A DNA stretch of 64,000 bases from Candidatus Woesebacteria bacterium RIFCSPHIGHO2_02_FULL_42_20 (GTDB lineage: Bacteria > Patescibacteriota > Microgenomatia > UBA8517): the NCBI GenBank assembly GCA_001792535.1, contig MGGS01000013.1, positions 64,692-128,691 on the forward strand. Direction: 5' to 3'. The translations under genes were made by a program, and so were the position numbers. Of the stretch, positions 4,465 through 60,441 are shown piece after piece. Under the pieces are notes generated by a model. The model was not told the origin of the DNA. It saw only the letters and a list, made by a program, of their open reading frames with translations, and ran no database searches. Position 1 is the first letter of the stretch, and every line of letters begins with the position of its first letter.

Positions 4465-4782
4465 CTCTGGAGGAAGGGCAATCGATCGCCAACAGCTACG
4501 CGGTTGTGGGCGGTAGGAAAGTCCAGGCAGCTCAAGGCAGGGTGGTCGTCGTAAGGCGGCACGCGAAAGCGCTAGAAAGTGCCACAGAGACAACGACTCA
4601 TCTTGGACCTAACCGGTCTAAGAAAGAGGGTGAAAAGAGGAAAACCTCCCCGCTGCAACCTCCGAATGGGGCGTTTGCTTGCCTACGCAAGTAGAAGGTA
4701 GCCTTGCCGAGCCCCGAAGCTTGAGGGCATAGATTGATGATTGCCATAAACAGAACCTGGCTTACTATCCTCCGGAGCCAAA
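4465..4782 (+). ncRNA. rnpB: RNase P RNA, bacterial type A
   Basis: GC-rich patch in an AT-rich genome. It contains GGAAAGTCCAGGC…AAGGCAGGGTGG, GTGCCACAGAGACAACGACTC, AGGGTGAAAAGAGG and the 3' block GGTAGCC…GCTTGAGGGCATAGATTGATGATTGCCATAAACAGAACCTGGCTTAC. These align segment by segment with the E. coli M1 RNA motifs GGAAAGUCCGGGCUCC, AGGGCAGG, ACAGAGAGCAAACC and ACAGAACCCGGCUUA. P1 can form between CTCTGGAGGA (4465-4474) and TCCTCCGGAG (4768-4777). Confidence 0.85.
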
Positions 4783-7605: not shown

Positions 7606-8073
7606 ATGAAACTTGTTGTTCAAAGAGTAAAAAGAGCGGAGGTTAAGGTGGGCAATAAAGTTGTTGGGAAAATTGGCAAGGGGTTGTTTATTTTAGTGGG
7701 AATTGGAAAAGCTGATACAGCGAAAGAAGCAAATGCTTTGGCGGCGAAATTAGAGAAGATGAGAGTGATGAGCGATCCCACTTCGCCGAGGCTTCGAGGG
7801 GCAAGTGGGAAAGATAAAATGAACTTTAGTGTACGAGACGTAGGAGCGGAAGTTTTGGTTGTTTCTCAATTTACGCTTTATGCAAATACCGCGGATGGAA
7901 ATAGACCTTCGTTTATAGAAGCGGCTGATCCGAAAAAGGCAAAGGAAATCTACGAATACTTTATAGACGAACTCAAGAATTTGGGTTTAAAAGTTGAAAC
8001 AGGAAGTTTTGGAGAATATATGAATATAAAAACAGAACTTGACGGACCTGTTACTATAGTACTCGAAAGTTAA
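7606..8073 (+). CDS. dtd: D-aminoacyl-tRNA deacylase
   Basis: MKLVVQRVKRAEVKV… N-terminus and the SQFTLYAN motif. 155 aa, the size expected for Dtd. Confidence 0.9.
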   Translation: MKLVVQRVKRAEVKVGNKVVGKIGKGLFILVGIGKADTAKEANALAAKLEKMRVMSDPTSPRLRGASGKDKMNFSVRDVGAEVLVVSQFTLYANTADGNRPSFIEAADPKKAKEIYEYFIDELKNLGLKVETGSFGEYMNIKTELDGPVTIVLES

Positions 8074-13410: not shown

Positions 13411-14286
13411 ATGAACTGGATGAAATATAAATATTTTTATTTTTTGGTTTCCGCTCTCTTTGTCGGTTTGGGAATATATTCGCTTGTCCGGTGGAATCTC
13501 AATTTCGGTATAGATTTTACCGGAGGGGCGCTTATTGAGTATAGATTTGCCAATGAAATATCAACTGAAACTGCTTTGGGTAAAATTGAAGAAACCGGCA
13601 TCAAAATATCGACGGTCCAGGAGACGAGTGATAGAAGCTATTTATTTAAATCGGGGAACTTGCAGAGTGGGGACCGTGAAAAAATTAAAGACGCGTTGGT
13701 CAAGGAATTCGGTGACGGAATCGACGAGATTAAATACGAAAATGTCGGCCCTTCCATAGGCAGCGATTTGCTTAAAAAAACTGCTTATGCGATTGGCATT
13801 GCATCGGTAGGCATTTTACTCTGGGTAGCGTTTCAGTTTAAAAGTGTCAAATACGGTGTCTGTGCGGTTTTAGCTATGTTTCATGACAGTTTTATATTAA
13901 TTGGCATGTTTTCACTGTTGGGGCATAGATTTGGTGCAGAAGTTGATTTTTTGTTTGTTACGGCGCTACTTACGACTCTGTCTTTTTCGGTCCATGACAC
14001 AATAGTGGTTTATGACCGTATACGCGAATCGCAACGCAAAATTGGAGGAAGTATAACAGAAGTTTCAAATGTAGCATTGTCGGAAACAATGGTGCGTTCT
14101 TTGAATAACTCGTTTACTATAATATTTATGTTGGTTGCATTGATACTGCTTGGCGGAGTCACTATCCGCTGGTTTGCCGTCGCGCTTTTGATCGGCACAA
14201 TCTCGGGTACCTACTCTTCCCCTTTCGTCGCAGTCCCTCTGCTTGTCGTCTGGGACCAAGTTGCTTCGAAGTTAAGAAGGCGATGA
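13411..14286 (+). CDS. secF: protein translocase subunit SecF
   Basis: FGIDFTGGALIEYRF motif and SecF topology. Immediately downstream of secD. Confidence 0.9.
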   Translation: MNWMKYKYFYFLVSALFVGLGIYSLVRWNLNFGIDFTGGALIEYRFANEISTETALGKIEETGIKISTVQETSDRSYLFKSGNLQSGDREKIKDALVKEFGDGIDEIKYENVGPSIGSDLLKKTAYAIGIASVGILLWVAFQFKSVKYGVCAVLAMFHDSFILIGMFSLLGHRFGAEVDFLFVTALLTTLSFSVHDTIVVYDRIRESQRKIGGSITEVSNVALSETMVRSLNNSFTIIFMLVALILLGGVTIRWFAVALLIGTISGTYSSPFVAVPLLVVWDQVASKLRRR

Positions 14287-15615
14287 CTTGAGTTTTTTAA
14301 GTAAAACTTCTCTTTTATTTTCCAATTTTTTCTCAACTACATCTTCAAAAAGTTTGTTCAAAATTTCACCGACTTTCGGCCCGGGTTTTAGATTTAATTC
14401 TTTCATCACGTCGTTGCCGTCAATTTTAAGATCTCGGATACTAAAGGGCTGTTTTTGAACTTCAATTAATCTTCTTTTAAATTCCTCAAGTCTCCACGAA
14501 GTTTCTCTTGCCCCCCCGCCCAGTCTGTCGGCAACGCGCAGGGCCAGTATGTCAGGAATGTTTTCTACACCTACATTTTTAATAAATCTCCGGAGTGCTG
14601 CGTCTGTTTGATGCTCGTTAACCGAAAACATATGCCAGCGGACAAGTCGAAGCAACTTTTCTTTATCGATATTTGCAAGCCGGAGTTTGTCGGCGATTTT
14701 TGAAGCAATTTTTGTGCTTACCATTTCATGGTTATAAAAGGTGATTGTCCCGTCTGGAAGCTTTTTGTGGGTTTTGGCTTTACCAATGTCGTGAAGCAAG
14801 GTTGCAAAACGAGTGATCGGATCGGCCGATTGGCAGTTTTTTAAAGCCATTACAAGGTGGGTTCCCACGTCATAGAGATGATGTCTGCCGGGGGACTTTT
14901 GCTCCACGCCAAAATTTTCTTCAAATTCGGGCAACACTTCATGCATAAGGGAGGAGTTCTTTAAAATCATAACACCTTCATAGGAGTAACTTGCAGAAAG
15001 TGTTTTCAAAAGTTCATCACGGATTCGCTCAGCGGCAATTTGATTAATTAAACCGGAGTGAAGCTTCATTGCTTCGAAAGTATTTTCTTCAATGGTAAAC
15101 CCAAGTTGTGCAGCAAATCTCACTGCGCGCATCATACGAAGAGCGTCTTCGCTAAACCTTTCAGTGGGGTCTCCGACCGCGCGGATGACCCTGTTTTTTA
15201 TATCGTTTTGGCCACCGAAAAGGTCGATGATTTCATAGTTATCGTTTAACTTTAATGCCAGAGCATTGATTGTAAAATCCCGCCTTTGAAGATCTTCCTC
15301 TAAAGTTTTTCCCCAAAATACTTTATCGGGCCGCCGGTGATCACTGTATCCATGCTCTGTTCTGTATGTTGTTATCTCGTGAGGTTTAAAGTTTTCGCTT
15401 TTGATGCCGACTGTCCCGTATTTGTTGTCGTAAAAGGAGTCTTTAAATAGTTTTTGAATGTCCTCGGGCTTGGCGTTAGTTGTAAAATCCCAATCGTTTG
15501 ATAGTTTTCCCATAAGCAGGTCTCTTACAGCGCCGCCAACGATATAAACTTCAAATCCTTTACTTTCGATTTTTTTGCAAATTTCGACTACTTCTTCTGG
15601 TAACTTTGTTTCCAT
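14272..15615 (-). CDS. cca: CCA-adding tRNA nucleotidyltransferase with C-terminal HD domain
   Basis: VYIVGGAVRDLLMGKLSNDWDFTTNAKPED head domain and an HD motif (…LLHDIGK…). 447 aa. Confidence 0.85.
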   Translation of the reverse strand: METKLPEEVVEICKKIESKGFEVYIVGGAVRDLLMGKLSNDWDFTTNAKPEDIQKLFKDSFYDNKYGTVGIKSENFKPHEITTYRTEHGYSDHRRPDKVFWGKTLEEDLQRRDFTINALALKLNDNYEIIDLFGGQNDIKNRVIRAVGDPTERFSEDALRMMRAVRFAAQLGFTIEENTFEAMKLHSGLINQIAAERIRDELLKTLSASYSYEGVMILKNSSLMHEVLPEFEENFGVEQKSPGRHHLYDVGTHLVMALKNCQSADPITRFATLLHDIGKAKTHKKLPDGTITFYNHEMVSTKIASKIADKLRLANIDKEKLLRLVRWHMFSVNEHQTDAALRRFIKNVGVENIPDILALRVADRLGGGARETSWRLEEFKRRLIEVQKQPFSIRDLKIDGNDVMKELNLKPGPKVGEILNKLFEDVVEKKLENKREVLLKKLKSSPS

Positions 15616-17545: not shown

Positions 17546-18601
17546 TTAAGGGGTACCTGTTCTTACCAATTGTCTTGCGAATAATTCTGTACCAAAACCA
17601 GATACGACCGTTGTTTCCTTCAGGTTAGAGGAAAGCCTTGCAACCCAATCTACTACGCCACCGTCAATAAAATCAACATCACCAACAAAGATTGTAAAAA
17701 CTTGTCCACTGTAATGTCCCCTTCCATACAATCTATCTAGTTGAAATGTATAAGTGACGTTTGGCTTGGGTGGTAAGCTTGTTAATACTCTTTCTATGGT
17801 TAAAAGTTCACCACCTATGTTTAACCCACCTGCTTGCTTTTGTGTTTCTGGCAAATTTATTATTTTCTGAGGTAATCTGCCTTGTAGGTTGTCAGCAAAT
17901 GATTCCGTCAAAAACTTGCCCTGTGTTTCCAGTTCGGCCGAACTTAAACTTGAAGAACTTTCTGGTAGTATTTTATTTGCTATTCCAACATTACCAACAC
18001 AAACCTCTAAATTTGATCCTGGTGAAATTTCACCAATAGCATTCAAGTAATAATCTATAAGATTTCTTAGAATTGAGATTTCTGGCGATCTATTATTGGT
18101 GTGTCTTAAAATCGAATCTGCTGTACCGAACATTTCAAAAGAAGTGAGATAATTTTTATCAGTATAACGTTGCAACCTCACACATTTATGAACTGCTCCA
18201 AGTTTAATTCCATTCTTGTTACCTTGTGATCTTCTTCTGTACACTTCCGTAGCTAATTGAGTGGTAGGGTCTGCAACTACATCTGCAGTTCTACCCGTAA
18301 CATGCGCCACTTTTAATGGTGATGTTCTTGCCAAAATCGAGTCCAACCCGAAAGGACTAAGAGCAGATAGATAAATCATTTCTCTGCCCCCCCGTTTCTC
18401 AAAGAGGATATTACCAATATTATGTAACACAAGTGCAGCTTCTCCGCTCAATGGTTGTCCGAAATCCCCATGGATTAGCCTTCTAATCGCCTGCAAATCA
18501 ATCTCTGCTTTACTAATTTTTCTGTGAAGTGCAGCTCTATAATCGGTATCGATTTTATCATTATTTAGATCTACACCTGCGACTCTATTTTCAATAGTCA
18601 T
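17546..18601 (-). CDS. hypothetical protein (351 aa), terminal gene of the island operon
   Basis: Long ORF packed 4 nt from the upstream methyltransferase. No motif recognised by eye (no P-loop, no radical-SAM Cys cluster). Confidence 0.4.
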   Translation of the reverse strand: MTIENRVAGVDLNNDKIDTDYRAALHRKISKAEIDLQAIRRLIHGDFGQPLSGEAALVLHNIGNILFEKRGGREMIYLSALSPFGLDSILARTSPLKVAHVTGRTADVVADPTTQLATEVYRRRSQGNKNGIKLGAVHKCVRLQRYTDKNYLTSFEMFGTADSILRHTNNRSPEISILRNLIDYYLNAIGEISPGSNLEVCVGNVGIANKILPESSSSLSSAELETQGKFLTESFADNLQGRLPQKIINLPETQKQAGGLNIGGELLTIERVLTSLPPKPNVTYTFQLDRLYGRGHYSGQVFTIFVGDVDFIDGGVVDWVARLSSNLKETTVVSGFGTELFARQLVRTGTP

Positions 18602-21623: not shown

Positions 21624-22670
21624 TTAAAAAGTAAATTTCTGACCATTAAATCTTGGTAAAGTTTGCATGTCTCGAATGTCGTTATGTTTTAGTAACCATA
21701 GAAAAAATCTCTCTACCCCTAGCCCGAAACCAGAAGTTTGAACAGGCACCTCATCCTTAATTGTTATATACCATTTATAAGGAGTTTCATCTATTTGATG
21801 TAAAGTAAGGGCTTCCCGCACTTCTTGTCCAGAAAGGTGGCGTTCTCCTGATCCAATAGTCTCACCAATACCCATCAGGAGGTCTGCATTAAGAGCTATC
21901 TTTTTATTTGCTCCAGGCGCAAATTTTTGATAGAAGGGAACAGCCATATGATCAAAATTGGTAAGCCAGACATATCCACCAAAATATTTCATCAATTCCG
22001 CTTCCCCTTTGCTATTAATATTTCGGTAAAGCGCATAACTCTCTACAAAATCGGGGTTGTTATCTAGAATTCTGACTGCCTCTTCAAAGGTGCATTTTGG
22101 TATGTTATATCCGTGCTGTGAGATATACTTAATATGTTCAGTAGTACCAGCAACAGATAATATCTCTTTTTCTAAAGTTTTAAGAAAGTGATTAGAAAGA
22201 TAAACGATATATTGCTCACAAAGTTTAATTACATTATCTAGTGTACCAATAATTTCTGCCTCGGAGTGGTAAAACTGGCCAAGATGACGCTCATCGGCTG
22301 ACTCGCCTCTAAATGATGGCGCGACATAATAAACGCCTTCTTTGTTTATTCGACAAGAGTATTCTAGAAAAAATTGCATGGAATCAGCCAAATAAGTATC
22401 AATTCCAGCAATTTGTACGTGCACTGGCACAGAGTCGCTACCCAAACCCATGGGACTGGAAATTGATCCAGTTGTAATTGGAAGTTGTACAGATTTAATA
22501 CCTCTCTGGCGGTAAAAGCTGACAGTTGCAAAGTTGAATTCGTCCTGTAATAAAGCCAATACTCTATACCATTCGTTTCTTAATGGAATTTTGTAATGAG
22601 TGGACAAATCTTTCCAAGATTTTGGTGGTTTTATTTTATTGTTCATATTAATAAAAATTAACTTGACCAA
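21624..22670 (-). CDS. stand-alone class II aminoacyl-tRNA-synthetase catalytic-core paralog (AsnA/AsnRS/AspRS-like; no anticodon-binding domain)
   Basis: Motif 2 PSFRGESADERHLGQFYHSEAE and motif 3 GFGLGVERFFLWLL of subclass IIb synthetases. At 348 aa it is too short to carry an OB anticodon-binding domain. Confidence 0.65.
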   Translation of the reverse strand: MVKLIFINMNNKIKPPKSWKDLSTHYKIPLRNEWYRVLALLQDEFNFATVSFYRQRGIKSVQLPITTGSISSPMGLGSDSVPVHVQIAGIDTYLADSMQFFLEYSCRINKEGVYYVAPSFRGESADERHLGQFYHSEAEIIGTLDNVIKLCEQYIVYLSNHFLKTLEKEILSVAGTTEHIKYISQHGYNIPKCTFEEAVRILDNNPDFVESYALYRNINSKGEAELMKYFGGYVWLTNFDHMAVPFYQKFAPGANKKIALNADLLMGIGETIGSGERHLSGQEVREALTLHQIDETPYKWYITIKDEVPVQTSGFGLGVERFFLWLLKHNDIRDMQTLPRFNGQKFTF

Positions 22671-23127: not shown

Positions 23128-24946
23128 ATGTCGATAGCTGAGAATAGAAGCTTTTTTGCCTCTCCTGAGATTGATCCCCAATCCAGACTGGGGATTCTTA
23201 ATATGAATGATGACGACTTAACTGGTCAAGTTCTTCAGGCGTATAAGGTAGCTGAATCGGCTCATAGAGGGCAGAGGAGGTTCTCGGATGAGCCTTATAT
23301 AAATCACTGTTTGGCGACTTTGAGAATTTTGGAAGCTATGGGCATTGAGGATTCAGAGATGCTTATGGCAGCCTTGTTGCATGATGTGGTTGAAGATGAT
23401 ACCGGAATCAATTTGGCAGCGCTAGAGCAGGAATTCGGCAATAGCGTTGCCCAACTGGTTGACGGGGTAACTAAACTACACACCGGAGATCAAGAAACAG
23501 CAGAAGCTTTAAGAGTTGTATCTTTATCTTACCTTGAGCCCAAGGTTGCAATTCTGAAGCTTGCTGATCGATTGCATAACATGATGACTTTGGGGAGCGT
23601 ACCGGACAATGAAAAGAGGATTTAGAAAGGCTAGGGAAACTTTGGAAGTCTACGCCCCTCTGGCCGAGTCACTGGGGATGTATGAAGTAAAAACTTTACT
23701 TGAAGATCTTGCTTTTGCACATATTGCCCCAGATCAGTTCGTACCGGTAAAAAGAAAGGTGGATCAGGATCCCAGATTAGATGATAAGTTTTTAGCATAT
23801 TGGATATCTAGGATTCAGGCGATACTTGACGAGAAGGGAATTAAAGGCTAGATTGAAGTCGCTCGGAATGGCTATTTTACTATAGAGACTAAGCGAAAAA
23901 ACTTGGGCAGTGCTGATACAAGGGGAATTGACGATCTAGTAAGTATAAGGGTGATCCTTCCAACACTCGATGATTGTTACCTGGCGAATGGTTTGTTGCA
24001 TATAAATCTTGGCGAAATTGTGGATTATAGTAGATTTGATGAATTCGTGGGAGCCAATGCCAGAGTCAATGGCTACTCTGCACTCCAGACAACCCTTGAG
24101 ACAAATCAGGGATCTTTAGAGGTTGCCTTGGTGACGCCGCAAATGGAAGAATTTAACCGCTGGGGAGTTGTCAGTTTACTCAGGCGTGGAGAGAGAGATC
24201 TTGAACATTTTACGCTGAAATCGGCTTTCGGGTCGGATGGAAAGGTTTTGTTTTTACCTAAACTGGCGACTGGAGTTGACTTGGTTTGTGCCATGGGGTC
24301 TAGGCTTTTGGCTAATGCCAATGCGATAAAAATAGACAATAGAGAGTTTCCGTTGACGGTAGTTGTTCCCAATGCGGCCAGATTTGAGGTAATTCTTGGT
24401 AATGAAGCAAGAATTGCCCCACTCCCGGAGCTTCTGGATTATTGTCTCCCCGCGACAAAGAGAATAATACTGGGACAGCTGGAAGTTGCGGAAAGATACG
24501 AACTGGCTAGTAAAGGCAAAAAAATATTGGAAGGAGTTCTTTCTCCTCGGGGAATTTTGGATCTCGGGGATGTCGAAGGAGTGGTCAGGGATTTGATCTA
24601 TTCACACGGTAGCCTGGAAGGCTTATATCTCAAAGTCGGATCTGGAGTAGTAAGCAGAGAAGAGGTTGCTCACTGGCTGGATGCTCACGGAATAACTAAA
24701 GATCGGTTGAAGTTAACAACAGTTCGTGTTGCAGGACTTGATCAGCCGGGTATCTTAGATGACCTGATACATCTGATTCGCAGGCAAGGCGATGGTGTTA
24801 ATATTAAAGGAATAGACCTACAAGGGGGAGACGATAACAGGTTTACATTGCGCTTAGTTGTTGAGCAGCTGGAATCTTCGTCGGAAGAAGCTATTCGGGT
24901 GGAAATAGGAAAAGATAGCCGTTTTGATGAATGGGTTGTGGTTTGA
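23128..24946 (+). pseudogene. RelA/SpoT-family (p)ppGpp synthetase/hydrolase homolog disrupted by a +1 frameshift (~23611-23625) and an in-frame TAG (23849-23851)
   Basis: Three consecutive ORFs (23122-23625, 23609-23851, 23903-24946) together cover the HD hydrolase domain (HRGQRRFSDEPYINHCL…LLHDVVEDD), a degenerate synthetase region (…DLVSIRVI…NGYSALQT), TGS and a C-terminal ACT domain (VRVAGLDQPGILDDL). The frame changes at an A-run. Confidence 0.65.
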
Positions 24947-24970: not shown

Positions 24971-25225
24971 TTGCGTTTTGGGGTGTGGCGTAGTATCATG
25001 GCGGTCATGAAAGAGAATTTTTTGGGTCGACTATTTGGCCATCCTAGAGCTGGAAGTACACCGGCGAAGATTGCTGAAGAGGTTGCGGTTCCTGAAAGTG
25101 CGCTCCCCTATGGTTTATGGGATGGAAAACCAAGTCTTACGGAACATGGCCGCTTGGTGGATGTAACGCTTTTTTCAGCAGCGCCTTCTCTGAATGCTAA
25201 CTCCGGAGGTTCAGGAGGTGATTGA
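24971..25225 (+). CDS. hypothetical small protein
   Basis: 84-aa ORF with a Gly-rich C-terminus and no recognisable motif. It is more GC-rich than its neighbours. Confidence 0.25.
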   Translation: MRFGVWRSIMAVMKENFLGRLFGHPRAGSTPAKIAEEVAVPESALPYGLWDGKPSLTEHGRLVDVTLFSAAPSLNANSGGSGGD

Positions 25226-25244
25226 TTTTGTCAAGAATGAGAGG

Positions 25245-25440
25245 TATCATATTTCCAAACCATTTGAGCTTGACTAACATCGAGCAAGGTGAAGGAAGAA
25301 AGCCTTTTGGCAAATAGACCCTTCCGGAGGCGCCCGTAAAAGCGCATAAATGAAGTAAAATTAAGGGTGGCACCGTCCTGAGCGGAATCGAAGGACCCCT
25401 GAAGATTTCTAATATTTAGAAGTTTTCAGGGGTTTTTCTG
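25245..25440 (+). promoter_or_regulatory. T-box riboswitch leader of aspS
   Basis: Conserved T-box sequence AATTAAGGGTGGCACCG (25359-25375). It is followed by an intrinsic terminator CCCCTGAA…TTCAGGGG-TTTTT (25396-25437). A GGTGA K-turn-like element and an AGAGG box lie upstream. The specifier codon was not confidently assigned. Confidence 0.6.
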
Positions 25441-25453
25441 TTAAAATGAAATT

Positions 25454-27256
25454 ATGGAAAGAACATTAGCCAAAGAAACAATTAGTAAAGTCGGTCAAAA
25501 GATCTTGCTCAAAGGCTGGGTAGCGACTATCCGCGATCACGGGAAGATTACTTTTTTGGATTTGAGGGATAGAAGCGGTAAAGTCCAATGTGTAGGTCAG
25601 GGTTTGTCAAAAATAACTACCGAAAGCGTGGTTGAAATTGAAGGCATAGTCGCAAAGCGTCCCGAAAAATTGGTTAACAAAAACTTGGAAACCGGAACAG
25701 TTGAAGTCCAGATCGAAAAGCTTGACGTCTTATCGGTAGCGCAAGATTTGCCAATAGACATGGGTAAAGAAGATTTGGATGTTTCTTTGCCGACTCTGCT
25801 TGACTTCCGCCCTTTGACTCTGCGAAATAAAAAAGTTAACTCCATCTTTAAAGTTCAGGAGGTTGTTATTGATTCTTTCAGAGAAGCCTTAAAGAAAAAA
25901 GATTTTTTTGAATTCCAGGCTCCAGTTTTTATTCCTGAGATTGCAGAGGGAGGAGCAGAAGTATTCAAAGTTCCTTATTTTAGCCACGAAGTCTACTTGT
26001 CTCAAAGCCCCCAGCTTTATAAGCAAATTTTAGTAGGCGCATATGAAAGAGTTTTTTCGGTGAATAAGACTTTGCGGGCAGAGCCGTCGGTGACTACCCG
26101 TCATTTAACGGAGGTTACTACACTTGATGCAGAGTTTGGCTTCATAGATAACTGGACCCAAGTGAAAGATATGGCCGAATACACAATAAAATATATGTTG
26201 AAAGCAGTTGAGGACAAATGCGGTGATATATTGGAAAGTTTTGGGGTTACTATACCAAAGTTTACGGACAGTATTCCGACAATAAAACTTCGTGAAGCAC
26301 AGGAAATTATTTATAGACGAACCAAAAGGGATAATAGAAATGAACCGGATTTGCAACCAGAAGATGAGAGAGAGATCTGTAAGTGGTCACTAGAGGAAAA
26401 GGGGAGCGACTTAGTCTTTGTTTCGCATTATCCAACCAAAAAAAGGCCGTTTTATACATATCAAGAGCCAGAAGACCCTGAATTTACCCAAAGTATGGAT
26501 TTGCTTGGCAGGGGTACGGAATGGATGACCGGTGGAAGAAGAATTAATGATTATGAGTTTTTGATTAAGATGGCAAAGGAGAGAAAAGTTGACCCTGAAA
26601 AACTTGATCTTTATTTGCAGGCCTTTAAGTTCGGAATGCCGCCAGAGGGCGGGTTTTCATTCGGATCAGAAAGGGTGACGATGCACATTCTTGGACTTGC
26701 TAACATCCGAGAAGCCTCACTTTTCCCGAGAGATATGGAAAGAGTAGATATTAGGCTATCAACGATACGAAAAGAAAGCCGAGTTTTGAAGGACGAAAGA
26801 AAAGATATATTTGAGATAATTGTCGATTCATTGGACTCGAAGGACATCCCCTTTGAAAAATATGAACACGAGCCGGTTTATACAAGTGAACAGGCTGCTA
26901 AAATTCGGGGAACTGATATTCATCAGGGAGCAAAAGCGCTGGTCTTACAGGCGGACAAAGATTTTATTTTATATGTTTTACCCGCTGACTTGCAGGCCAA
27001 TTTGGAAGGACTCCAAAATAAACTAAAGGTGAAAAAGTTAAGAATGGCATCCAAAGATTCTGTTAAAGCAAAAACAGGCCTTGAGGTTGGAGCAGTTCCG
27101 CCATTAGGATCATTCGTTGGACTTAAAACCTATGTCGACCCAAGGCTTTCTGAAAATAAAGAGATTGTTTTCAATGCTGGTCGTCACGACCGATCTATAA
27201 AAATGAGATATTCTGACTTCGTTAGACTCGAAAAACCTAAAATTATTCAGTTGTAA
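25454..27256 (+). CDS. aspS: aspartyl-tRNA synthetase (archaeal/eukaryal-type core) fused to a C-terminal YbaK/ProX-like aminoacyl-tRNA deacylase domain
   Basis: N-terminal OB fold, motif 2 LRAEPSVTTRHLTEVTTLDAEFGF and motif 3 GGFSFGSERVTMHILGLANIREASLFPRD end the core near residue 433. Residues ~440-600 align with YbaK (IPFEKYEHEP…KALVLQADKDFILYVLPADLQANLEGLQNKL…KAKTGLEVGAVPPLG…EIVFNAGRHDRSIKMRYSDFVRL). Confidence 0.85.
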   Translation: MERTLAKETISKVGQKILLKGWVATIRDHGKITFLDLRDRSGKVQCVGQGLSKITTESVVEIEGIVAKRPEKLVNKNLETGTVEVQIEKLDVLSVAQDLPIDMGKEDLDVSLPTLLDFRPLTLRNKKVNSIFKVQEVVIDSFREALKKKDFFEFQAPVFIPEIAEGGAEVFKVPYFSHEVYLSQSPQLYKQILVGAYERVFSVNKTLRAEPSVTTRHLTEVTTLDAEFGFIDNWTQVKDMAEYTIKYMLKAVEDKCGDILESFGVTIPKFTDSIPTIKLREAQEIIYRRTKRDNRNEPDLQPEDEREICKWSLEEKGSDLVFVSHYPTKKRPFYTYQEPEDPEFTQSMDLLGRGTEWMTGGRRINDYEFLIKMAKERKVDPEKLDLYLQAFKFGMPPEGGFSFGSERVTMHILGLANIREASLFPRDMERVDIRLSTIRKESRVLKDERKDIFEIIVDSLDSKDIPFEKYEHEPVYTSEQAAKIRGTDIHQGAKALVLQADKDFILYVLPADLQANLEGLQNKLKVKKLRMASKDSVKAKTGLEVGAVPPLGSFVGLKTYVDPRLSENKEIVFNAGRHDRSIKMRYSDFVRLEKPKIIQL

Positions 27257-27370: not shown

Positions 27371-28276
27371 ATGAAATTGGTTTATTTATCCGCGTCGGCT
27401 TTTGTGATAGTAAGTCTTTTTGCGATAAACTTAGTGGCAGATCGGTATGCTAAGTTAGTGTACAGCGAGGCTAAATCTGTTCTCGCCTACACGATTTCTT
27501 CAAAGTTTGTTCCGCTACTAAATAATCGAGCTTCGGCCCCGATTGTCTCGGCCCCGGGGGCAATGGCCGTGGACCTTGAGACAGGGATTCCTCTCTTTCA
27601 AAAAGACGCTCGTAAAAAGCTTCTTCCGGCATCGACGACCAAAATAGTGACTGCTTTGGTGGCCTTGGAAAGTTATCCATTGGATAAAGTTTTGGAAGTA
27701 AAAAAGGCCGGAGTTGAAGGCCAAAAAATGAGACTTGTCTTGGGGGAACAGATGTCTGTCAGGAATTTACTTTATGGGCTTCTGGTTTTTAGCGCAAACG
27801 ACGCGGCTGAAACCTTGGCGGACAATTTTCCAAAAGGACGAGACGAGTTTGTACGACACATGAACAGTCTGGCCAGAAGACTCAATTTAGCAGACACGTA
27901 TTTTGAAAACCCCACCGGCATAGATGGAAACAATCAGGTTACAAGTGCCAGAGACATGATTCGCCTTGCTTCATATGCCATGAGAGATAAGGACTTTAGG
28001 GAAATTGTATCTACGAAAGAAATTACTGTGGAAAATTTTGAAGGAAATTTAAAACACAAGCTGACGAACCTGAATGAATTACTGGGTCAGGTGGAAGGGG
28101 TTATCGGAGTCAAAACCGGCTGGACGGAGGAAGCAAGAGAAAATTTAGTGACTTATGTCGAACGAGACGATAGACGCATTGCATTGGTTGTTCTGGGCAG
28201 CCAAGACAGGTTTGGTGAAACAAAGGAACTCATAGAATGGATTTTTAACAGTTATAGTTGGATTTACTCGCCGTAA
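27371..28276 (+). CDS. serine-type D-Ala-D-Ala carboxypeptidase (PBP5/S11-like)
   Basis: SxxK (ASTTK), SxN (FSANDAA) and KTG (KTGWT) motifs after an N-terminal signal/TM. A TTGTCA-N17-TACACT promoter lies upstream. Confidence 0.8.
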   Translation: MKLVYLSASAFVIVSLFAINLVADRYAKLVYSEAKSVLAYTISSKFVPLLNNRASAPIVSAPGAMAVDLETGIPLFQKDARKKLLPASTTKIVTALVALESYPLDKVLEVKKAGVEGQKMRLVLGEQMSVRNLLYGLLVFSANDAAETLADNFPKGRDEFVRHMNSLARRLNLADTYFENPTGIDGNNQVTSARDMIRLASYAMRDKDFREIVSTKEITVENFEGNLKHKLTNLNELLGQVEGVIGVKTGWTEEARENLVTYVERDDRRIALVVLGSQDRFGETKELIEWIFNSYSWIYSP

Positions 28277-29346
28277 TACTCACGGGATACGGCCGGTACA
28301 TAAGCCATGAAATTTTTGTCCCCTTCAAAAACAATTACAGGTTGATAAAAGTCGGTGGGAAAGCCAGCGTCGTAATAAGCCAAATATACTTTTCTGATTG
28401 ACACTGAGCCTTCCAAGTTTTGGCCGATGGAGGCGATGTAGGCTTGGTTGTTTTTTAGTTCCTCGAAAGCATTGGCGGAAGACTTAAGAGAATAGGTCGC
28501 AAACTTTTCTTTGTCTACCGGAAAATAAAGATTCTCGCCCGCTAAGACTTGGTCACGGCCGCCGGATCCCGACAGGATTAGCCAGACATTGGCTTGGTTT
28601 GGGAATGGCGTCAGGCTCGGAAGACTGTCGTATGGTTCCCTAAAAAGGTTTACTTTAATGAGATTAGCTTCGGATAGGGATACTACGGGAATTAAGTTTT
28701 TTTCCTCCACTCGCAGTAGCTCGTGGGTGGCGTCGCCACGACTGATGTCGTCTGCAAGAACATTGGCAGAAGCAAGAATTGCTTTAGCGCGGGGAATGGC
28801 AACTTCGGGTGCTGGTGGCCTGTTTTCAAGGGGACTCAAAAACCCTTCCAGATCGTAGCTTATTGAAAATATCTTGGTGGCGATATTTATCTCGAGCTGT
28901 GAGGGAAGAGAAGGATGTGAAAATCTGTATACCGTCTGTGAGACTCGAAACGGGTCGGTATTAAAGCCAAGTAAGTTTGCCGTAATTCTTGAGCGCTCCA
29001 GTGAATATAAGGTGATGGTGCTTTTGGGCATAAAAAAGACCTTCCCTTGGTCGGGAAACTTTGGCAGCTCGCTGTCGACCGTGTCCAGTTTGTATTCAAA
29101 TTGCGGCAAGCCTTCAACCGCGGGAAAAGGAAGTGACGGGAGTTTTCCAAAGGCCACCGTCGGCTTGGGCGTGGGATCCGGGCGTAGCGACCTGTATACT
29201 TGTCCGCCGATTCCGATAAACGCCCTGCCGAAAATTATCAGGAGTACAAGAATCCATGAAAACCTGATAGCCGTGCGAGTGATCATGGCGACGCGCGTTA
29301 ACTTGGTCATGCTTTGAGTATAGCTTTTTAAGATGCTAGAATTCAA
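28264..29346 (-). CDS. hypothetical membrane-anchored exported protein
   Basis: 360-aa ORF with an N-terminal TM helix and no recognisable catalytic motifs. It is convergent with, and 13 nt overlapping, the carboxypeptidase gene. Confidence 0.4.
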   Translation of the reverse strand: MNSSILKSYTQSMTKLTRVAMITRTAIRFSWILVLLIIFGRAFIGIGGQVYRSLRPDPTPKPTVAFGKLPSLPFPAVEGLPQFEYKLDTVDSELPKFPDQGKVFFMPKSTITLYSLERSRITANLLGFNTDPFRVSQTVYRFSHPSLPSQLEINIATKIFSISYDLEGFLSPLENRPPAPEVAIPRAKAILASANVLADDISRGDATHELLRVEEKNLIPVVSLSEANLIKVNLFREPYDSLPSLTPFPNQANVWLILSGSGGRDQVLAGENLYFPVDKEKFATYSLKSSANAFEELKNNQAYIASIGQNLEGSVSIRKVYLAYYDAGFPTDFYQPVIVFEGDKNFMAYVPAVSREYYGE

Positions 29347-29348
29347 TT

Positions 29349-30635
29349 GTGATTAGAGTAAGAATTGCGCCTTCGCCTACAGGTTTTGCCCACATTGGCA
29401 CAGCTTACACGGCTTTATTTAATTATGCATTCGCAAGACACAATAAAGGAACTTTCGTTATACGCGTGGAAGATACGGATGTAAAAAGAAATGTAAAAGG
29501 TGCCGAGGAGGCAATCTTTGGTGGTCTAGAGTGGCTCGGACTTGACTGGGATGAGAGCGTGGTTACTGGTGGAAAACATGGTCCCTATCGGCAATCTGAA
29601 AAGCTTGATGTATACAGAAACAAGGCAAAAGAACTAGTAAAGAAAGGATGGGCAAAAAAAGAAGAAGGGGCTATTCGATTCAACGGTGGTTTGTACGAAA
29701 AGAAGATAAACAAGTGGATAACCTGGAAAGACTTAATCCGCGGCGAGATTAGTTTTCATACAAATCAATTGACGGATTTTGTAATTTTGAAATCTGACGG
29801 GTATCCGACTTATAATTTTGCTGTTGTGATCGATGACTTGGATATGGAGGTTACTCATGTGATTCGTGGCGAGGAGCATATACCCAATACTCCAAGGCAA
29901 ATAGCACTCTATAAAGTTTTTGGACAGACACATCCGGAATTTGCCCATCACGTGACGCTTAGGGGAGCCGATCGGAGGAAACTATCCAAAAGGCGGGATC
30001 CTGTGGACCTTCGAATTTATCGGGAACAAGGTTATCTGCCGGAAGCCCTGCTTAATTTTTTGTGCTTGCTTGGCTGGTCACACCCGCAGGAAAAGGAAAT
30101 ATTTAGTTTGGCCGAGTTTGTGAAACTTTTTGATCTAAAAAGAATGCGCAAAGCTGGCCCCGTCTTTGATGTCAAAAAACTTGATTGGATGAATGGAGAA
30201 TACATTAGAAAAACTCAAAACTCAAAACTCAAAACTCAAATTTACGATTTCTATGACGGGGAATATGACAAAGAAGCAATAGAAAAAGTTCTGCCCTTAG
30301 TACAGACAAGAATGAATAAATTAAGCGAGTTTGGGACTATGGCTAACTTTTTCTTTAAAGAGCTCAAAATAGACAAGAAGTTGTTTGAGAAAGATTACAA
30401 GATGTATTTGAAATCTGCCCTGGAAGTTTTAGAGCATGTTAAACCTTTCAACCTCGATGCCGTTAGTAAAGAATTAATGAGAGCAGTTAAAGAAAATAAA
30501 TATAAGACTGGCGACTTTTTCATGAGCTTGCGATTAGCTATTGCCGGAAGCCGTTTTACTCCACCGATTAACGAATCAATGGTGATATTGGGAAAAAACG
30601 AAGTGATTAAAAGGCTTAAAGAGGTGCTAGATTAA
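29349..30635 (+). CDS. gltX: glutamyl-tRNA synthetase (short form)
   Basis: PSPTGFAHIGTAYTALFN (HIGH region) and KLSKR (KMSKS variant). 428 aa. It contains an AAAACTC x4 tandem repeat at 30210-30237. Confidence 0.9.
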   Translation: MIRVRIAPSPTGFAHIGTAYTALFNYAFARHNKGTFVIRVEDTDVKRNVKGAEEAIFGGLEWLGLDWDESVVTGGKHGPYRQSEKLDVYRNKAKELVKKGWAKKEEGAIRFNGGLYEKKINKWITWKDLIRGEISFHTNQLTDFVILKSDGYPTYNFAVVIDDLDMEVTHVIRGEEHIPNTPRQIALYKVFGQTHPEFAHHVTLRGADRRKLSKRRDPVDLRIYREQGYLPEALLNFLCLLGWSHPQEKEIFSLAEFVKLFDLKRMRKAGPVFDVKKLDWMNGEYIRKTQNSKLKTQIYDFYDGEYDKEAIEKVLPLVQTRMNKLSEFGTMANFFFKELKIDKKLFEKDYKMYLKSALEVLEHVKPFNLDAVSKELMRAVKENKYKTGDFFMSLRLAIAGSRFTPPINESMVILGKNEVIKRLKEVLD

Positions 30636-30640
30636 CATAT

Positions 30641-31591
30641 ATGAAAAAATCTGCCCGGCAGCTTAGTTTTGATGATTTAAGAGAACGTCTCAAGCTCAAA
30701 AAATTGACAGAGCAAGCTACTTTCAGCAAAAATTTTCCTGCTGCAACAAAGTTTTTCAAAAATAGGAATACCGACCTGGGGAAGATAAGGGATCACTCGA
30801 TCAAACTTATCGGTAGCGGATTGGTCACCGGTTCCATACTGCTTACTCACCTGCAGGGCATCGACGAAGTTTTGCCTTCCCCGCAATCGGTGATCGAAAA
30901 ATTAAACAGTCAAATTGCCTCTACAAGTAAAGCTTCCCAAAAACTTCTTTTGGAGTCACTGAAGGAACTACTTCCGAGCAAAGTTGGGCCATTGAGTCGG
31001 GAACAGGAGAAAGCACTTGAGAGGGTGTTTGAAAAAACTTTAAATATACCAGTCCGAGCTACTTTGGAGGGTGAGCACCTGAATACTGTATATGGCTATG
31101 TTGGTGCGGAGCAGCATCTTAAGCGCTACCCAGGAGATTTCCTCAGCCAACACTCGGGTGACCCGGCGATACTAAGATCGGGGATTGCTCCGGGCCTTGG
31201 GGCTTGGGGCTATTTTGCCCAATCAAAAGCTCAACTTTCCGAGGATTTAATAGAGAAAGAAAAATGGTATACGGTTGTCCAAACGCTTTACCTGCCGGAG
31301 TGGAACAGGCGTGTCGGTTATCTTCGTGACTGGTATAGGTATCGGAAAGTTTTAATAGTGAATACCAAAAACGGTAACGCAGTTGTTGCCTCTATTGCGG
31401 ATTCCGGGCCCGCGGCGTGGACGGGTAAGCACTATGGTGGAAGTCCGGAGGTTATGGAATACCTGGGAGGATCGCGTTATAAAAAAGGACCGGTTCTTGT
31501 TTTTTTTGTGGATGACCCTGACAATAATGTTCCTTTGGGGCCGGTTGAGTATAATAAATATAGCGCACAAATACACCCGTACACCAGTTGA
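30641..31591 (+). CDS. hypothetical exported protein (possible C-terminal RlpA/3D-like barrel)
   Basis: 316 aa. The C-terminal block …NGNAVVASIADSGPAAWTGKHYGGSPEVMEYLG… loosely resembles double-psi beta-barrel lytic-transglycosylase-associated domains. The assignment is weak. Confidence 0.35.
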   Translation: MKKSARQLSFDDLRERLKLKKLTEQATFSKNFPAATKFFKNRNTDLGKIRDHSIKLIGSGLVTGSILLTHLQGIDEVLPSPQSVIEKLNSQIASTSKASQKLLLESLKELLPSKVGPLSREQEKALERVFEKTLNIPVRATLEGEHLNTVYGYVGAEQHLKRYPGDFLSQHSGDPAILRSGIAPGLGAWGYFAQSKAQLSEDLIEKEKWYTVVQTLYLPEWNRRVGYLRDWYRYRKVLIVNTKNGNAVVASIADSGPAAWTGKHYGGSPEVMEYLGGSRYKKGPVLVFFVDDPDNNVPLGPVEYNKYSAQIHPYTS

Positions 31592-55090: not shown

Positions 55091-55161
55091 CTGCCCAGCC
55101 ACGATTCGAACGTGGATTAGATGGTTCAGAGCCATCTGGCCTACCGTTAGCCGACCGGGCA
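55091..55161 (-). tRNA. tRNA-Gln (anticodon CUG)
   Basis: 71-nt cloverleaf folded by hand. The acceptor stem is TGCCCGG/CTGGGCA with a U1:A72 pair and discriminator G73, a hallmark of bacterial tRNA-Gln. D-arm GGCT/GGCC, anticodon stem GATGG/CCATC with loop CTCTGAA (U33, CUG, A37), and T-arm CCACG-TTCGAAT-CGTGG. No CCA is encoded. Confidence 0.85.
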
Positions 55162-59115: not shown

Positions 59116-60441
59116 ATGAACGATAATTCACAGACTAGTCAGACCTCTTCCCAGGAACCGGCGGTTGCAGCGGGGCCTCCGCCTGCGGGTGATCCTAATT
59201 TGGAAAATTTGTCCAAAGGTGTCCCTCCGGATATGAAGCTTGATCAGGTTCCCCCGGATTTGCAGGAAAGCCCACAAGTTGTCCAGACGACTACCTCCAC
59301 GGATGAACTGATCCCTGAGCGCCAGGAACTTAGAAAAAGCAAAAAAGGTCTAAAGCTTTTCTTAGCCCTCCTTCTATTGTTTTTGCTGGTTTTTGGTATT
59401 GGAGGGGGGGTGTTTTACGCTGTTGCCTATGAAAAGATAGACATAGGGAACAAAGATCTGCAAAGGTCAGTTGCATATTTTGTGCAAGATTTACCTTTTA
59501 CTCCCAAAACTCCTAAATACGTTTTAGAAAAGGCGTATTTGGTACAAAAAGATGTTCAGTCGGTAAGCTTTGACGCATCGGTAGCTTTAAGCTCCGGTAG
59601 TTTATCTATACTTGGCCTTGGGAATTTCGATATGCAGTTTGTGGGGGATATTGATTATCTTGATCTGGAAAATCTGAAGGCAAAAATGAATGTCTCCGTG
59701 GTTAAAGAATTTGATATGGATATTGTGACTGTTGGCGACAAAGCATATTTGCGTGTGAATAAAGTTCCGTCTTTGGTTTTGAGTTTTGTTGGAATTTCAA
59801 GTGACAAAATCAGCCCCTTTTTGGGTACGTGGGTGGCTTTGGAGCAGGAAGACTTGTATGGTTCCGGCACGGTCCAAAATCCGACTCCGTCATCTGGCAT
59901 GACCGGGGACGAGTTGGCAAAAAGCCTTGAGTTGGCGCTTGAAGAAAAGGTGCTGGCAGCGATGGAAATGACAGAAGAACTACTTGACGGCAAGAAGTCA
60001 TACAAGTTTCATTTTTCGCCAAGCGCCGATTTGCTTGATTACATTATGAAAAGGGCAGGCGATATCAATAACCAGGACAGTAGTTACTCGGGTGATTATA
60101 AGGCCTCCGATTACTATAAAGATTTGAGCCTTGATGTTTGGGTTGATGCAAACACCTATTATACGACCAAAGTATCTGTTTCGATTGTTTTGGATAGCGG
60201 ATCTAGCCTCCCGGGTGGTAGTGCATTTTTAGACGACCCGCTTTCAATGCTAGGTTCATCCCAACAATTTGACATCGCCTTTGTTATGAAGTTAAGCAAT
60301 CACGGCAACGTTCCTGAAATAGTTGCACCGGCGGATGCAAAGTCTGTAGAACAATTTAGCAAAGAGCTTGAGGCCGCATTTATGAGTGAACTCGGCTCTA
60401 TCGGTGTTGACGAGTTTGGTAACGATTTTCTTTCAATCTGA
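59116..60441 (+). CDS. hypothetical membrane-anchored exported protein with Pro/Gln-rich N-terminus
   Basis: 441 aa. Low-complexity N-terminal ~70 aa, one TM helix and a large extracytoplasmic domain with no recognised motif. Confidence 0.4.
   Translation: MNDNSQTSQTSSQEPAVAAGPPPAGDPNLENLSKGVPPDMKLDQVPPDLQESPQVVQTTTSTDELIPERQELRKSKKGLKLFLALLLLFLLVFGIGGGVFYAVAYEKIDIGNKDLQRSVAYFVQDLPFTPKTPKYVLEKAYLVQKDVQSVSFDASVALSSGSLSILGLGNFDMQFVGDIDYLDLENLKAKMNVSVVKEFDMDIVTVGDKAYLRVNKVPSLVLSFVGISSDKISPFLGTWVALEQEDLYGSGTVQNPTPSSGMTGDELAKSLELALEEKVLAAMEMTEELLDGKKSYKFHFSPSADLLDYIMKRAGDINNQDSSYSGDYKASDYYKDLSLDVWVDANTYYTTKVSVSIVLDSGSSLPGGSAFLDDPLSMLGSSQQFDIAFVMKLSNHGNVPEIVAPADAKSVEQFSKELEAAFMSELGSIGVDEFGNDFLSI

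Follow-up and report, generated by a model that had tools for sequence, protein, structure and literature searches.

Aspartyl-tRNA synthetase (AspRS) is, to our knowledge, held to be so accurate that it can do without proofreading. Why, then, is an aminoacyl-tRNA editing domain joined to the AspRS of a Woesebacteria genome, and what would it edit? The gene in question, an aspS-proXp fusion, lies in a 64,000-nucleotide (nt) stretch of Candidatus Woesebacteria bacterium RIFCSPHIGHO2_02_FULL_42_20 (contig MGGS01000013.1, positions 64,692 to 128,691), a host from the Candidate Phyla Radiation (CPR). This whole stretch is called the window, and coordinates refer to it. The answer that appears somewhat probable is that the domain would serve post-transfer editing while tethered to a non-discriminating AspRS, one that loads both tRNAAsp and tRNAAsn. 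The gene and its product consist of the following parts:

25454..27256, + strand: aspS-proXp fusion gene, 600 amino acids (aa), ATG to TAA, one unbroken open reading frame (ORF)
25505..25732, + strand: oligonucleotide-binding (OB)-fold anticodon-binding domain, residues 18-93 (PF01336, 4e-13)
25793..26734, + strand: class IIb catalytic core, residues 114-427 (PF00152, 8e-73)
26735..26806, + strand: linker, residues 428-451; a helix (427-445), then a low-confidence hinge in the AlphaFold2 (AF2) model
26807..27253, + strand: YeaK/ProXp-ST1-like aminoacyl-tRNA editing domain, residues 452-600 (PF04073, 1e-30)

In the synthetase portion, the class II motifs and the QSPQ motif of the Asp pocket are present: QSPQLYK at residues 184-190, motif 2 RAEPSVTTRH at 208-217 and motif 3 GFSFGSERV at 400-408, with no variation of QSPQLYK, RAEPSVTTRH or GSER in 120 homologs. 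The core scores 445 bits against NF003483, the aspartate--tRNA(Asn) ligase equivalog of NCBIfam/PGAP (cutoff 353), and 324 against TIGR00458 (cutoff 368). Its terminal NIREASLFPRD occupies residues 417-427, and the linker that follows coincides with the endpoint of unfused homologs (query positions 435-446). Further downstream, the tRNA_edit family PF04073 of Pfam matches residues 472-592 over profile positions 1-123 of 123, with 106.8 bits (cutoff 25.5). In the full-length AF2 model, built on 125 sequences, the mean predicted local distance difference test score (pLDDT) is 91.3, dropping to 54-74 around residues 431-450 in the linker. The editing domain (452-600) is compact and alpha/beta in this model, with a pLDDT of 94 when modelled alone. 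Profile matches and model establish the predicted gene product as an archaeal-type AspRS extended, through a helix and a flexible hinge, by a complete deacylase domain of the INS (YbaK/ProX) superfamily.

The original prediction, made from the letters of the DNA, had described an AspRS of archaeal type to whose C-terminus an editing-fold domain is fused, an arrangement that it treated as unusual. Both judgements were correct: PF01336, PF00152 and PF04073 fall on one ORF, the C-terminal region covers the full PF04073 profile, and the core end and the glycine-rich loop GAVPPLG (residues 546-552) lie where they were recognised. A sequencing join, raised there as a possible source of error, is excluded because the same protein is found on two independently assembled contigs and many diverged fused homologs exist. 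Among the 120 homolog clusters that match best, 83 have the fused three-domain architecture at 51-72% identity, giving at least 83 different protein clusters from CPR. A single residue, D579 in the window and Y579 in the database copy P0001 (codon 27188..27190), separates the two near-identical proteins; it directly follows the family-conserved His578 of the FNAG-H motif.

Within the superfamily, the domain scores far below the cutoffs of both YbaK equivalogs, with 63-67 bits for TIGR00011 (cutoff 153) and 29-33 bits for NF007951 (cutoff 243). Reference proteins were scored against a family profile, A2, built from the window domain and 101 free-standing homologs (102 members). The highest scores belong to Legionella lpg1207 (3op6, 116 bits) and E. 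coli YeaK (115 bits), followed by the YbaK proteins of H. influenzae and E. coli (48-54 bits, E. coli YbaK 48), ProXp-x (2cx5, 52 bits), APE2540 (47 bits), ProXp-ala (1vki and 5vxb, 40-43 bits; comparison set 5vxb, 1vjf, 1vki) and the INS domain of prolyl-tRNA synthetase (ProRS; 26-38 bits). The ProRS model gives the domain 34-37 bits. In BLASTP, the domain is 34% identical to E. coli YeaK (2e-26, 85 bits) and 27% identical to E. coli YbaK (1e-11, 46 bits). A neighbour-joining domain tree of low resolution places YeaK inside the family and 3op6, APE2540 and YbaK outside. All 37 significant Foldseek matches in the PDB have the YbaK/ProX/INS fold, with template modelling (TM) scores of 0.63-0.84. 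Among the YeaK, lpg1207, YbaK, ProXp-x, APE2540, ProXp-ala and ProRS INS references, these comparisons place the predicted domain in the branch of E. coli YeaK/ProXp-ST1.

The original prediction had taken the domain for a YbaK/ProX module, of the kind that clears Cys- or Ala-tRNAPro. The fold and the Pfam family have held, and the Joint Genome Institute (JGI) names some free-standing homologs 'Ala-tRNA(Pro) deacylase' or 'Cys-tRNA(Pro) deacylase'. The specific type has not: both equivalog cutoffs failed, YeaK is closer than YbaK or ProXp-ala, the motifs are GAKAL, PPFG and FNAG-H as opposed to KTLL, SPLG and SGGKRG in YbaK, and no link to proS occurs at any locus examined. An identity as YbaK or ProXp-ala is ruled out by the equivalog cutoffs and the profile scores, and clearance of Cys- or Ala-tRNAPro by a domain carried on AspRS is very unlikely.

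YeaK, named "mischarged aminoacyl-tRNA deacylase" in RefSeq, is ProXp-ST1, which clears Ser- and Thr-tRNAs produced by several synthetases, tRNALys included (PMC11295145, PMC11286415); tRNALys is charged by an enzyme of class IIb, to which AspRS also belongs (PMC11295145). Since YeaK is the closest characterised relative tested, deacylation of the Ser/Thr type would be expected, not that of Cys- or Ala-tRNAPro. The two share the motifs IRGT, GAKALV, GA(I/V)PPF and FNAG, and YeaK is the best characterised homolog tested. They differ in context: YeaK is a single domain acting in trans, whereas the window domain is covalently fused to AspRS, and some of its relatives are translationally coupled to that enzyme. 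Legionella pneumophila lpg1207 ranks first in the sequence search (1.5e-32) as well as in the structure search (Foldseek 1.2e-14, TM 0.77/0.83) and carries GAMPPFG and FNAGSH, but it is a stand-alone, uncharacterised structural-genomics protein that falls outside the family in the domain tree.

The catalytic signature of the superfamily is a conserved Lys together with a GXXXP loop (PMC11286415). In the window domain, HEPVYTSEQ (472-480) is followed by GAKAL with Lys494, the GXXXP loop G546-A-V-P-P550 and FNAGRH with His578. Lys494 is nearly invariant across 125 sequences and aligns with the Lys of the YbaK KTLL motif. In the 102 family members, H31, S37, R44, G51-A52-K53, G105, P109, G111, F132-N133 and S140 are invariant, and the Gly and Pro of the GXXXP loop show no variation in A2. 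The motifs H-PV-TS, RGT, G-KAL, G-(V/I)PPFG and FNAG-H-S are retained in CPR-fused, DPANN-fused and free-standing groups alike. The predicted signature (Lys494 and GXXXP) is clearly intact and would permit catalysis. A domain that merely added tRNA-acceptor binding or mediated complex formation could also retain the Lys and the GXXXP loop, as these are substrate-binding elements, and tRNA-binding or scaffolding additions have been acquired by other synthetases. Such a non-catalytic appendage is highly improbable, however: about 25 positions, pocket motifs included, are near-fully conserved with the free-standing enzymes, and no degenerate member was seen among 83 + 107 fused sequences.

Is the pairing peculiar to this locus? 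The survey of AspRS architectures suggested by the original prediction found the same pairing again in CPR and in DPANN archaea. At the syntenic locus, the gene order is RecJ, aspS, Peptidase_S11, a hypothetical gene and gltX. The fused state occurs in the window and at loci L014 and L094. In the split state (L008, L011, L012), proXp overlaps the aspS stop codon by 4-23 nt; the L008 junction reads AAAGGAAAATGA, comprising a ribosome-binding site and an ATGA overlap. At L001, from another Woesebacteria genome, the domain is absent and Peptidase_S11 directly follows aspS. The synthetase partner also varies. It is archaeal-type in the window and L012, and bacterial-type without the GAD insertion in L008 and L011 (NF001750, 582-610 bits; 36-37% identity to the window enzyme). 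In L020 and L033 (CPR), a bacterial-type AspRS lacking GAD is fused to the domain. A third form is represented by P0269 (744 aa), a full bacterial-type AspRS with GAD and a C-terminal editing domain; with it as query, more than 100 clusters were found (733-764 aa, 51-87% identity), the named ones being labelled Candidatus Woesearchaeota or Nanoarchaeota (DPANN). Its relatives include L013 and L056; a few others, 589-595 aa long, are unfused and share 69-74% identity with the fused query.

The editing-domain family comprises 10,720 members from a profile search of 1.84 billion representatives. Its genomic context was surveyed at 80 GTDB loci bearing the family motif HEPV[YF]TSEQ, where the domain is fused to AspRS in 4, directly 3' of aspS in 10, within 2 kb of it in 2 and stand-alone in 64. 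The ten adjacent loci belong to Saccharibacteria, other Patescibacteria, Aenigmatarchaeota, Woesearchaeota and one metagenome-assembled genome (MAG) labelled Methanosarcinales; the stand-alone ones belong to Gemmataceae and other Planctomycetota, Thermoproteota and some CPR and DPANN. Organism labels on MAG contigs ("Gammaproteobacteria" for L033, "Pseudomonadales" for L025) may be binning errors. As assigned from sequence, the pairing spans three AspRS lineages and both prokaryotic domains, the best-named examples being an archaeal-type enzyme in bacteria and a bacterial-type enzyme in archaea. Other architectures were also seen (P0241, P0242, P0244, P0321, P0329): two- and three-fold tandem domains, a fusion with WD40 repeats and a ProXp-Peptidase_S11 fusion. 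The last, a read-through fusion, mirrors the gene order at the window locus.

The synthetase core and the editing domain have partly separate histories. In a coarse neighbour-joining core tree, the window core groups with enzymes that are otherwise all unfused (89% identity to P0011, about 80% to P0018 and P0022), while the window editing domain is 73-81% identical to domains on cores that are only 64-70% identical. The window core has 81% identity to an unfused Woesebacteria enzyme. Its identity to the core of the fused L014 is only 66%, while the C-terminal domains of these two are 81% identical. Over 3,403 fused pairs, core and domain identity correlate weakly (r = 0.29). This pattern indicates frequent re-assortment, fission and loss of the predicted module. 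For the window lineage, the downstream Peptidase_S11 favours neither gain nor loss, its identity to the two candidate relatives being about equal (57.5% and 56%).

Such mobility could also mean that a general trans-editor was fused by accident, the aspS-proXp adjacency being repeatedly converted into a fusion by loss of a stop codon. Its substrates would then be tRNAs mischarged by other synthetases, for example the threonyl, alanyl, valyl or lysyl enzymes (ThrRS, AlaRS, ValRS, LysRS), with no special relation to AspRS. The 64 of 80 loci at which the domain stands away from aspS fit this account, as do the broad tRNA specificity of YeaK-type enzymes (PMC11295145), the ease with which fused, split and absent states interconvert (together with the weak correlation above) and the likeness of AspRS cores in fused and unfused forms. 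The linkage across three AspRS lineages in bacteria and archaea speaks against it, as adjacency passed on by descent would hardly account for this unless the cassette were selected or transferred as a unit. On balance, an accidental fusion is rated as unlikely.

The control region of the gene bears on the tRNA that the enzyme serves. An unannotated T-box leader (25268..25437, + strand) lies within the 228-nt gap 5' of the ATG. The following elements are recognised:

25222..25250, + strand: promoter-like site TTGATT-17-TATCAT (consensus scan, 9/12 matches; weak, pattern-only)
25268..25285, + strand: truncated Stem I hairpin GCUUGA/CUAACA/UCGAGC, in the minimum free energy (MFE) and centroid folds
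25291..25324, + strand: Stem II with S-turn, 5' GAAGG-AAGAAA, 3' AAAUAGAC-CCUUC, supported by covariation
25330..25345, + strand: hairpin with F-box-like CCGUAA (Stem IIA/B region); CCGU-A-A invariant in 8 leaders, 4/4 pairs changed on both sides
25364..25400, + strand: antiterminator with A1 AGGG/CCCU, bulge UGGCACC and A2 GUCC/GGAC; A1 and A2 100% paired in 8 leaders
25393..25437, + strand: intrinsic terminator, 20-bp stem and U-run (terminator scan)

The Stem I hexaloop has the form NN-AAC-R, in which the Asn specifier AAC (25276-25278) is followed by a conserved purine. The antiterminator is formed by pairing of AGGG-UGGCACC-GUCC (25364-25378) with GGAC-CCCU (25393-25400), leaving a 7-nt bulge at 25368-25374 whose UGGC would pair with a G73-CCA 3' end. 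The 5' strand of the terminator overlaps the 3' strand of the antiterminator. The leader has an MFE of -63.2 kcal/mol (z = -4.5).

These elements recur in a set of eight CPR leaders: those of the window, L008, L011, L014, L020 and L058, all of them 5' of aspS, and those of L094 and L025. In the Stem II basal helix, 5/5 pairs are changed on both sides, with 95% of cells paired and UAGA invariant; A2 covaries at 4/4 pairs. The antiterminator-state structure as a whole (Stem II base, F-box hairpin, A1, A2) is 93% paired, with 14/17 pairs changed on both sides, and its covariation score is 0.544, compared with 0.226 for shuffled alignments (0/500 reached the observed value) and at most 0.16 for slid partners. 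In the terminator state, the score is 0.515 vs 0.253 for shuffles, and the main helix is paired in 89% of cells with 9 pairs changed on both sides. AAC followed by a purine (A or G) is found in the Stem I loop of 8/8 leaders, obeying the C rule (C at position 3). The NNAACR loop stands on differently sequenced, fully paired stems in 7/8; for L020, the script found no Stem I and a 3-4 bp stem is seen by eye only. As an alternative specifier, GAC/GAA in the S-turn stem was considered and ruled out: this element is Stem II, because UAGA is invariant, the next nucleotide is a pyrimidine and the F-box follows. No match of the leader to the Rfam T-box family RF00230 was found at the gathering threshold or at E <= 10. 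A metagenome scan for AGGGTGGCACCGTC, intended to enlarge the leader set, gave only chance matches in GC-rich coding DNA among the matches listed.

Truncated Stem I, the Stem II S-turn, a IIA/B region with F-box and a 7-nt bulge, together with the C rule, have been described for T-boxes (PMC7583486). The actinobacterial ileS T-boxes share with the window leader the short Stem I with specifier and purine, the S-turn stem, the F-box and the 7-nt UGGNACC bulge (PMC7583486). They include translational switches, whereas the window leader has an intrinsic terminator, an Asn specifier and a CPR host. Structure and covariation clearly identify the element preceding the gene as a predicted transcription-attenuating T-box with an AAC (Asn) specifier.

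Two other leaders of the set control different genes. At L094 (1056..5652), an Asn-type T-box precedes an aminotransferase (PF00155), an archaeal-type phosphoenolpyruvate carboxylase (PF14010) and an aspS-proXp fusion. This operon combines Asp supply with charging, a coherent response to a shortage of Asn charging, provided that Asn arises from Asp on the tRNA. At L025 (2920..3956), an Asn-type T-box precedes a two-gene operon in which a 164-aa asparaginase-family protein (PF00710, 1.4e-23) comes first and a free-standing proXp directly after it; a tblastn search detected no aspS 5' of this proXp. The Asn-specifier T-box and the NF003483 match argue that the window enzyme serves tRNAAsn, and it is most likely non-discriminating, loading both tRNAAsp and tRNAAsn. 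A non-discriminating AspRS had been raised as one option in the original prediction, and the question is a relevant one; the T-box leader, which was not recognised there, lends the idea support. A non-discriminating AspRS and its T-box control in Clostridium acetobutylicum were reportedly described by Saad et al. (2012, J Biol Chem). The window enzyme resembles such enzymes in having a tRNAAsn-type T-box 5' of its gene; of the two equivalog models scored, its core exceeds the cutoff of NF003483 and stays below that of TIGR00458. It differs in that its T-box belongs to the truncated-Stem-I class missed by RF00230; the non-discriminating AspRS enzymes known to us are also without an editing domain.

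With tRNAAsn as a probable client, the domain could instead guard or hand over an intermediate of the Asn pathway, either hydrolysing Asp-tRNAAsn missed by GatCAB, so as to prevent Asn-to-Asp mistranslation, or holding the acyl end for the amidotransferase. The Asn-specifier T-box on aspS-proXp is in keeping with this, and so is the L025 leader, which governs an asparaginase-family protein and a free-standing proXp; this asparaginase link is a single case among the loci examined. An AsnA-like paralog lies 3 kb upstream of aspS in the window, and His578, not found in YeaK, could alter specificity. Enzymes of the INS family read the acceptor stem and the discriminator base (PMC11295145), by which they could in principle separate tRNAAsn from tRNAAsp. 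Against these points, it would be futile to hydrolyse an obligate intermediate at its own producer, and hydrolysis would raise uncharged tRNAAsn, read by the T-box as a call for more enzyme. Among ORFs of at least 400 aa in the 64-kb window, neither an asparaginyl-tRNA synthetase (AsnRS) nor GatCAB is found. A role of this kind is a minor possibility.

The favoured reading, a tethered editing module on a non-discriminating AspRS, would operate as follows. Uncharged tRNAAsn would be sensed by the T-box, and expression of aspS-proXp would rise. With the anticodon anchored on the OB domain, the acylated CCA end would leave the synthetic site for the deacylase pocket, carried next to it on the helix-hinge linker. 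The pocket would be sampled while the tRNA remains anchored or immediately after its release, and a non-cognate aminoacyl ester would be hydrolysed in the editing domain. Homology to YeaK suggests, as a best guess, that the amino acid removed would be small and polar, such as Ser or Thr, and that its carrier would be tRNAAsp, tRNAAsn or a near-cognate tRNA.

Several observations weigh against this reading. We know of no AspRS that misactivates Ser or Thr. No column of the AspRS core separates fused from unfused enzymes among 120 homologs (76 columns invariant, all catalytic motifs included), and therefore there is no sign of a laxer amino-acid pocket in the fused ones. Close relatives with 81-89% core identity have neither the domain nor a proXp at the locus; the module is therefore dispensable or replaceable. 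The family-conserved His578 is Leu in YeaK, and specificity may therefore differ from that of YeaK. The placement of the editing domain relative to the core is only modelled, with a predicted TM score (pTM) of 0.72. Finally, AAC is constant in 8/8 leaders, and its role as specifier is read from position and motif, not from variation with gene function.

A wider claim is possible, and is held more tentatively: AspRS may be an eighth synthetase family with a true editing domain working on its own products, the non-discriminating enzymes of CPR and DPANN having repeatedly recruited a YeaK-like deacylase to check tRNAAsp/tRNAAsn acylation in the tRNA-dependent Asn pathway, as a unit under a tRNAAsn-sensing T-box. 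The product removed might then be some mis-acylated tRNA or Asp-tRNAAsn escaping amidation. In a 2024 review, seven synthetase families with editing domains are listed and AspRS is never mentioned; superfamily members other than INS are described as single-domain proteins, from which the window domain departs by being fused (PMC11295145). Superfamily members joined to a class II synthetase are also known from ProRS, as the INS domain in bacteria and as an N-terminal ProXp-ala domain in Plasmodium and Trypanosoma. There, post-transfer editing of the enzyme's own errors is the task of the joined domains (PMC11295145, PMC11286415). They differ in partner and substrate, editing Ala-tRNAPro on ProRS where the window partner is AspRS, and are distant in sequence (26-43 bits). 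Full-text searches of the searchable literature, CPR and DPANN included, returned no description of an AspRS-editing-domain fusion; public databases list the fused proteins by unspecific names, for example "aspartate--tRNA(Asn) ligase". The new element is the combination: an editing fold that is already known sits on a synthetase family for which no editing is known.

The window holds further genes related to tRNA, and several long ORFs:

4466..4780, + strand: RNase P RNA (109 bits)
7606..8073, + strand: Dtd (PF02580, 4.6e-51)
14272..15615, - strand: CCA-adding enzyme
29349..30635, + strand: glutamyl-tRNA synthetase, GluRS (TIGR00464, 451 bits)
55091..55161, - strand: tRNA-Gln(CTG)
59116..60441 (+), 28264..29346 (-), 30641..31591 (+) and 17546..18601 (-): ORFs of 316-441 aa with no Pfam match

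The original prediction had located Dtd and called the window rich in tRNA deacylation functions. The Dtd assignment was right and the description holds as such; for a functional cluster of the window's tRNA-related genes with aspS-proXp, no evidence was found apart from the conserved aspS...gltX synteny. The ORF at 28264..29346 occupies a position between Peptidase_S11 and gltX that is conserved at several loci. On the other side of aspS, at a distance of 3 kb, 21624..22670 (- strand) encodes 348 aa that form the catalytic core of a class IIb synthetase and lack an anticodon domain. In NCBIfam, the models of asparagine synthetase A match this product best (260 and 246 bits, below the cutoffs of 389 and 322); those of AsnRS follow with 121-131 bits. 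By these scores it looks like an AsnA-like paralog. Also 5' of aspS, a 347-aa ORF (23903..24946, + strand) has only a weak RelA_SpoT fragment (31 bits). Its syntenic counterpart at L001 is a full RelA/SpoT of 500 aa (HD_4, RelA_SpoT, TGS), and the window copy may be truncated or degraded.

In conclusion, a recurrent pairing of AspRS with a deacylase in two domains of life would point either to a real source of error in Asp/Asn charging or to a new control of the tRNA-dependent Asn pathway. A superfamily branch with only partly known roles would thereby gain a physiological partner. The leader adds T-box regulation in CPR, in a form missed by Rfam, and provides sequence-level evidence for an AspRS serving tRNAAsn. 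The occurrence of the pairing in ultra-small bacteria and archaea points to an unrecognised quality-control step in their translation.

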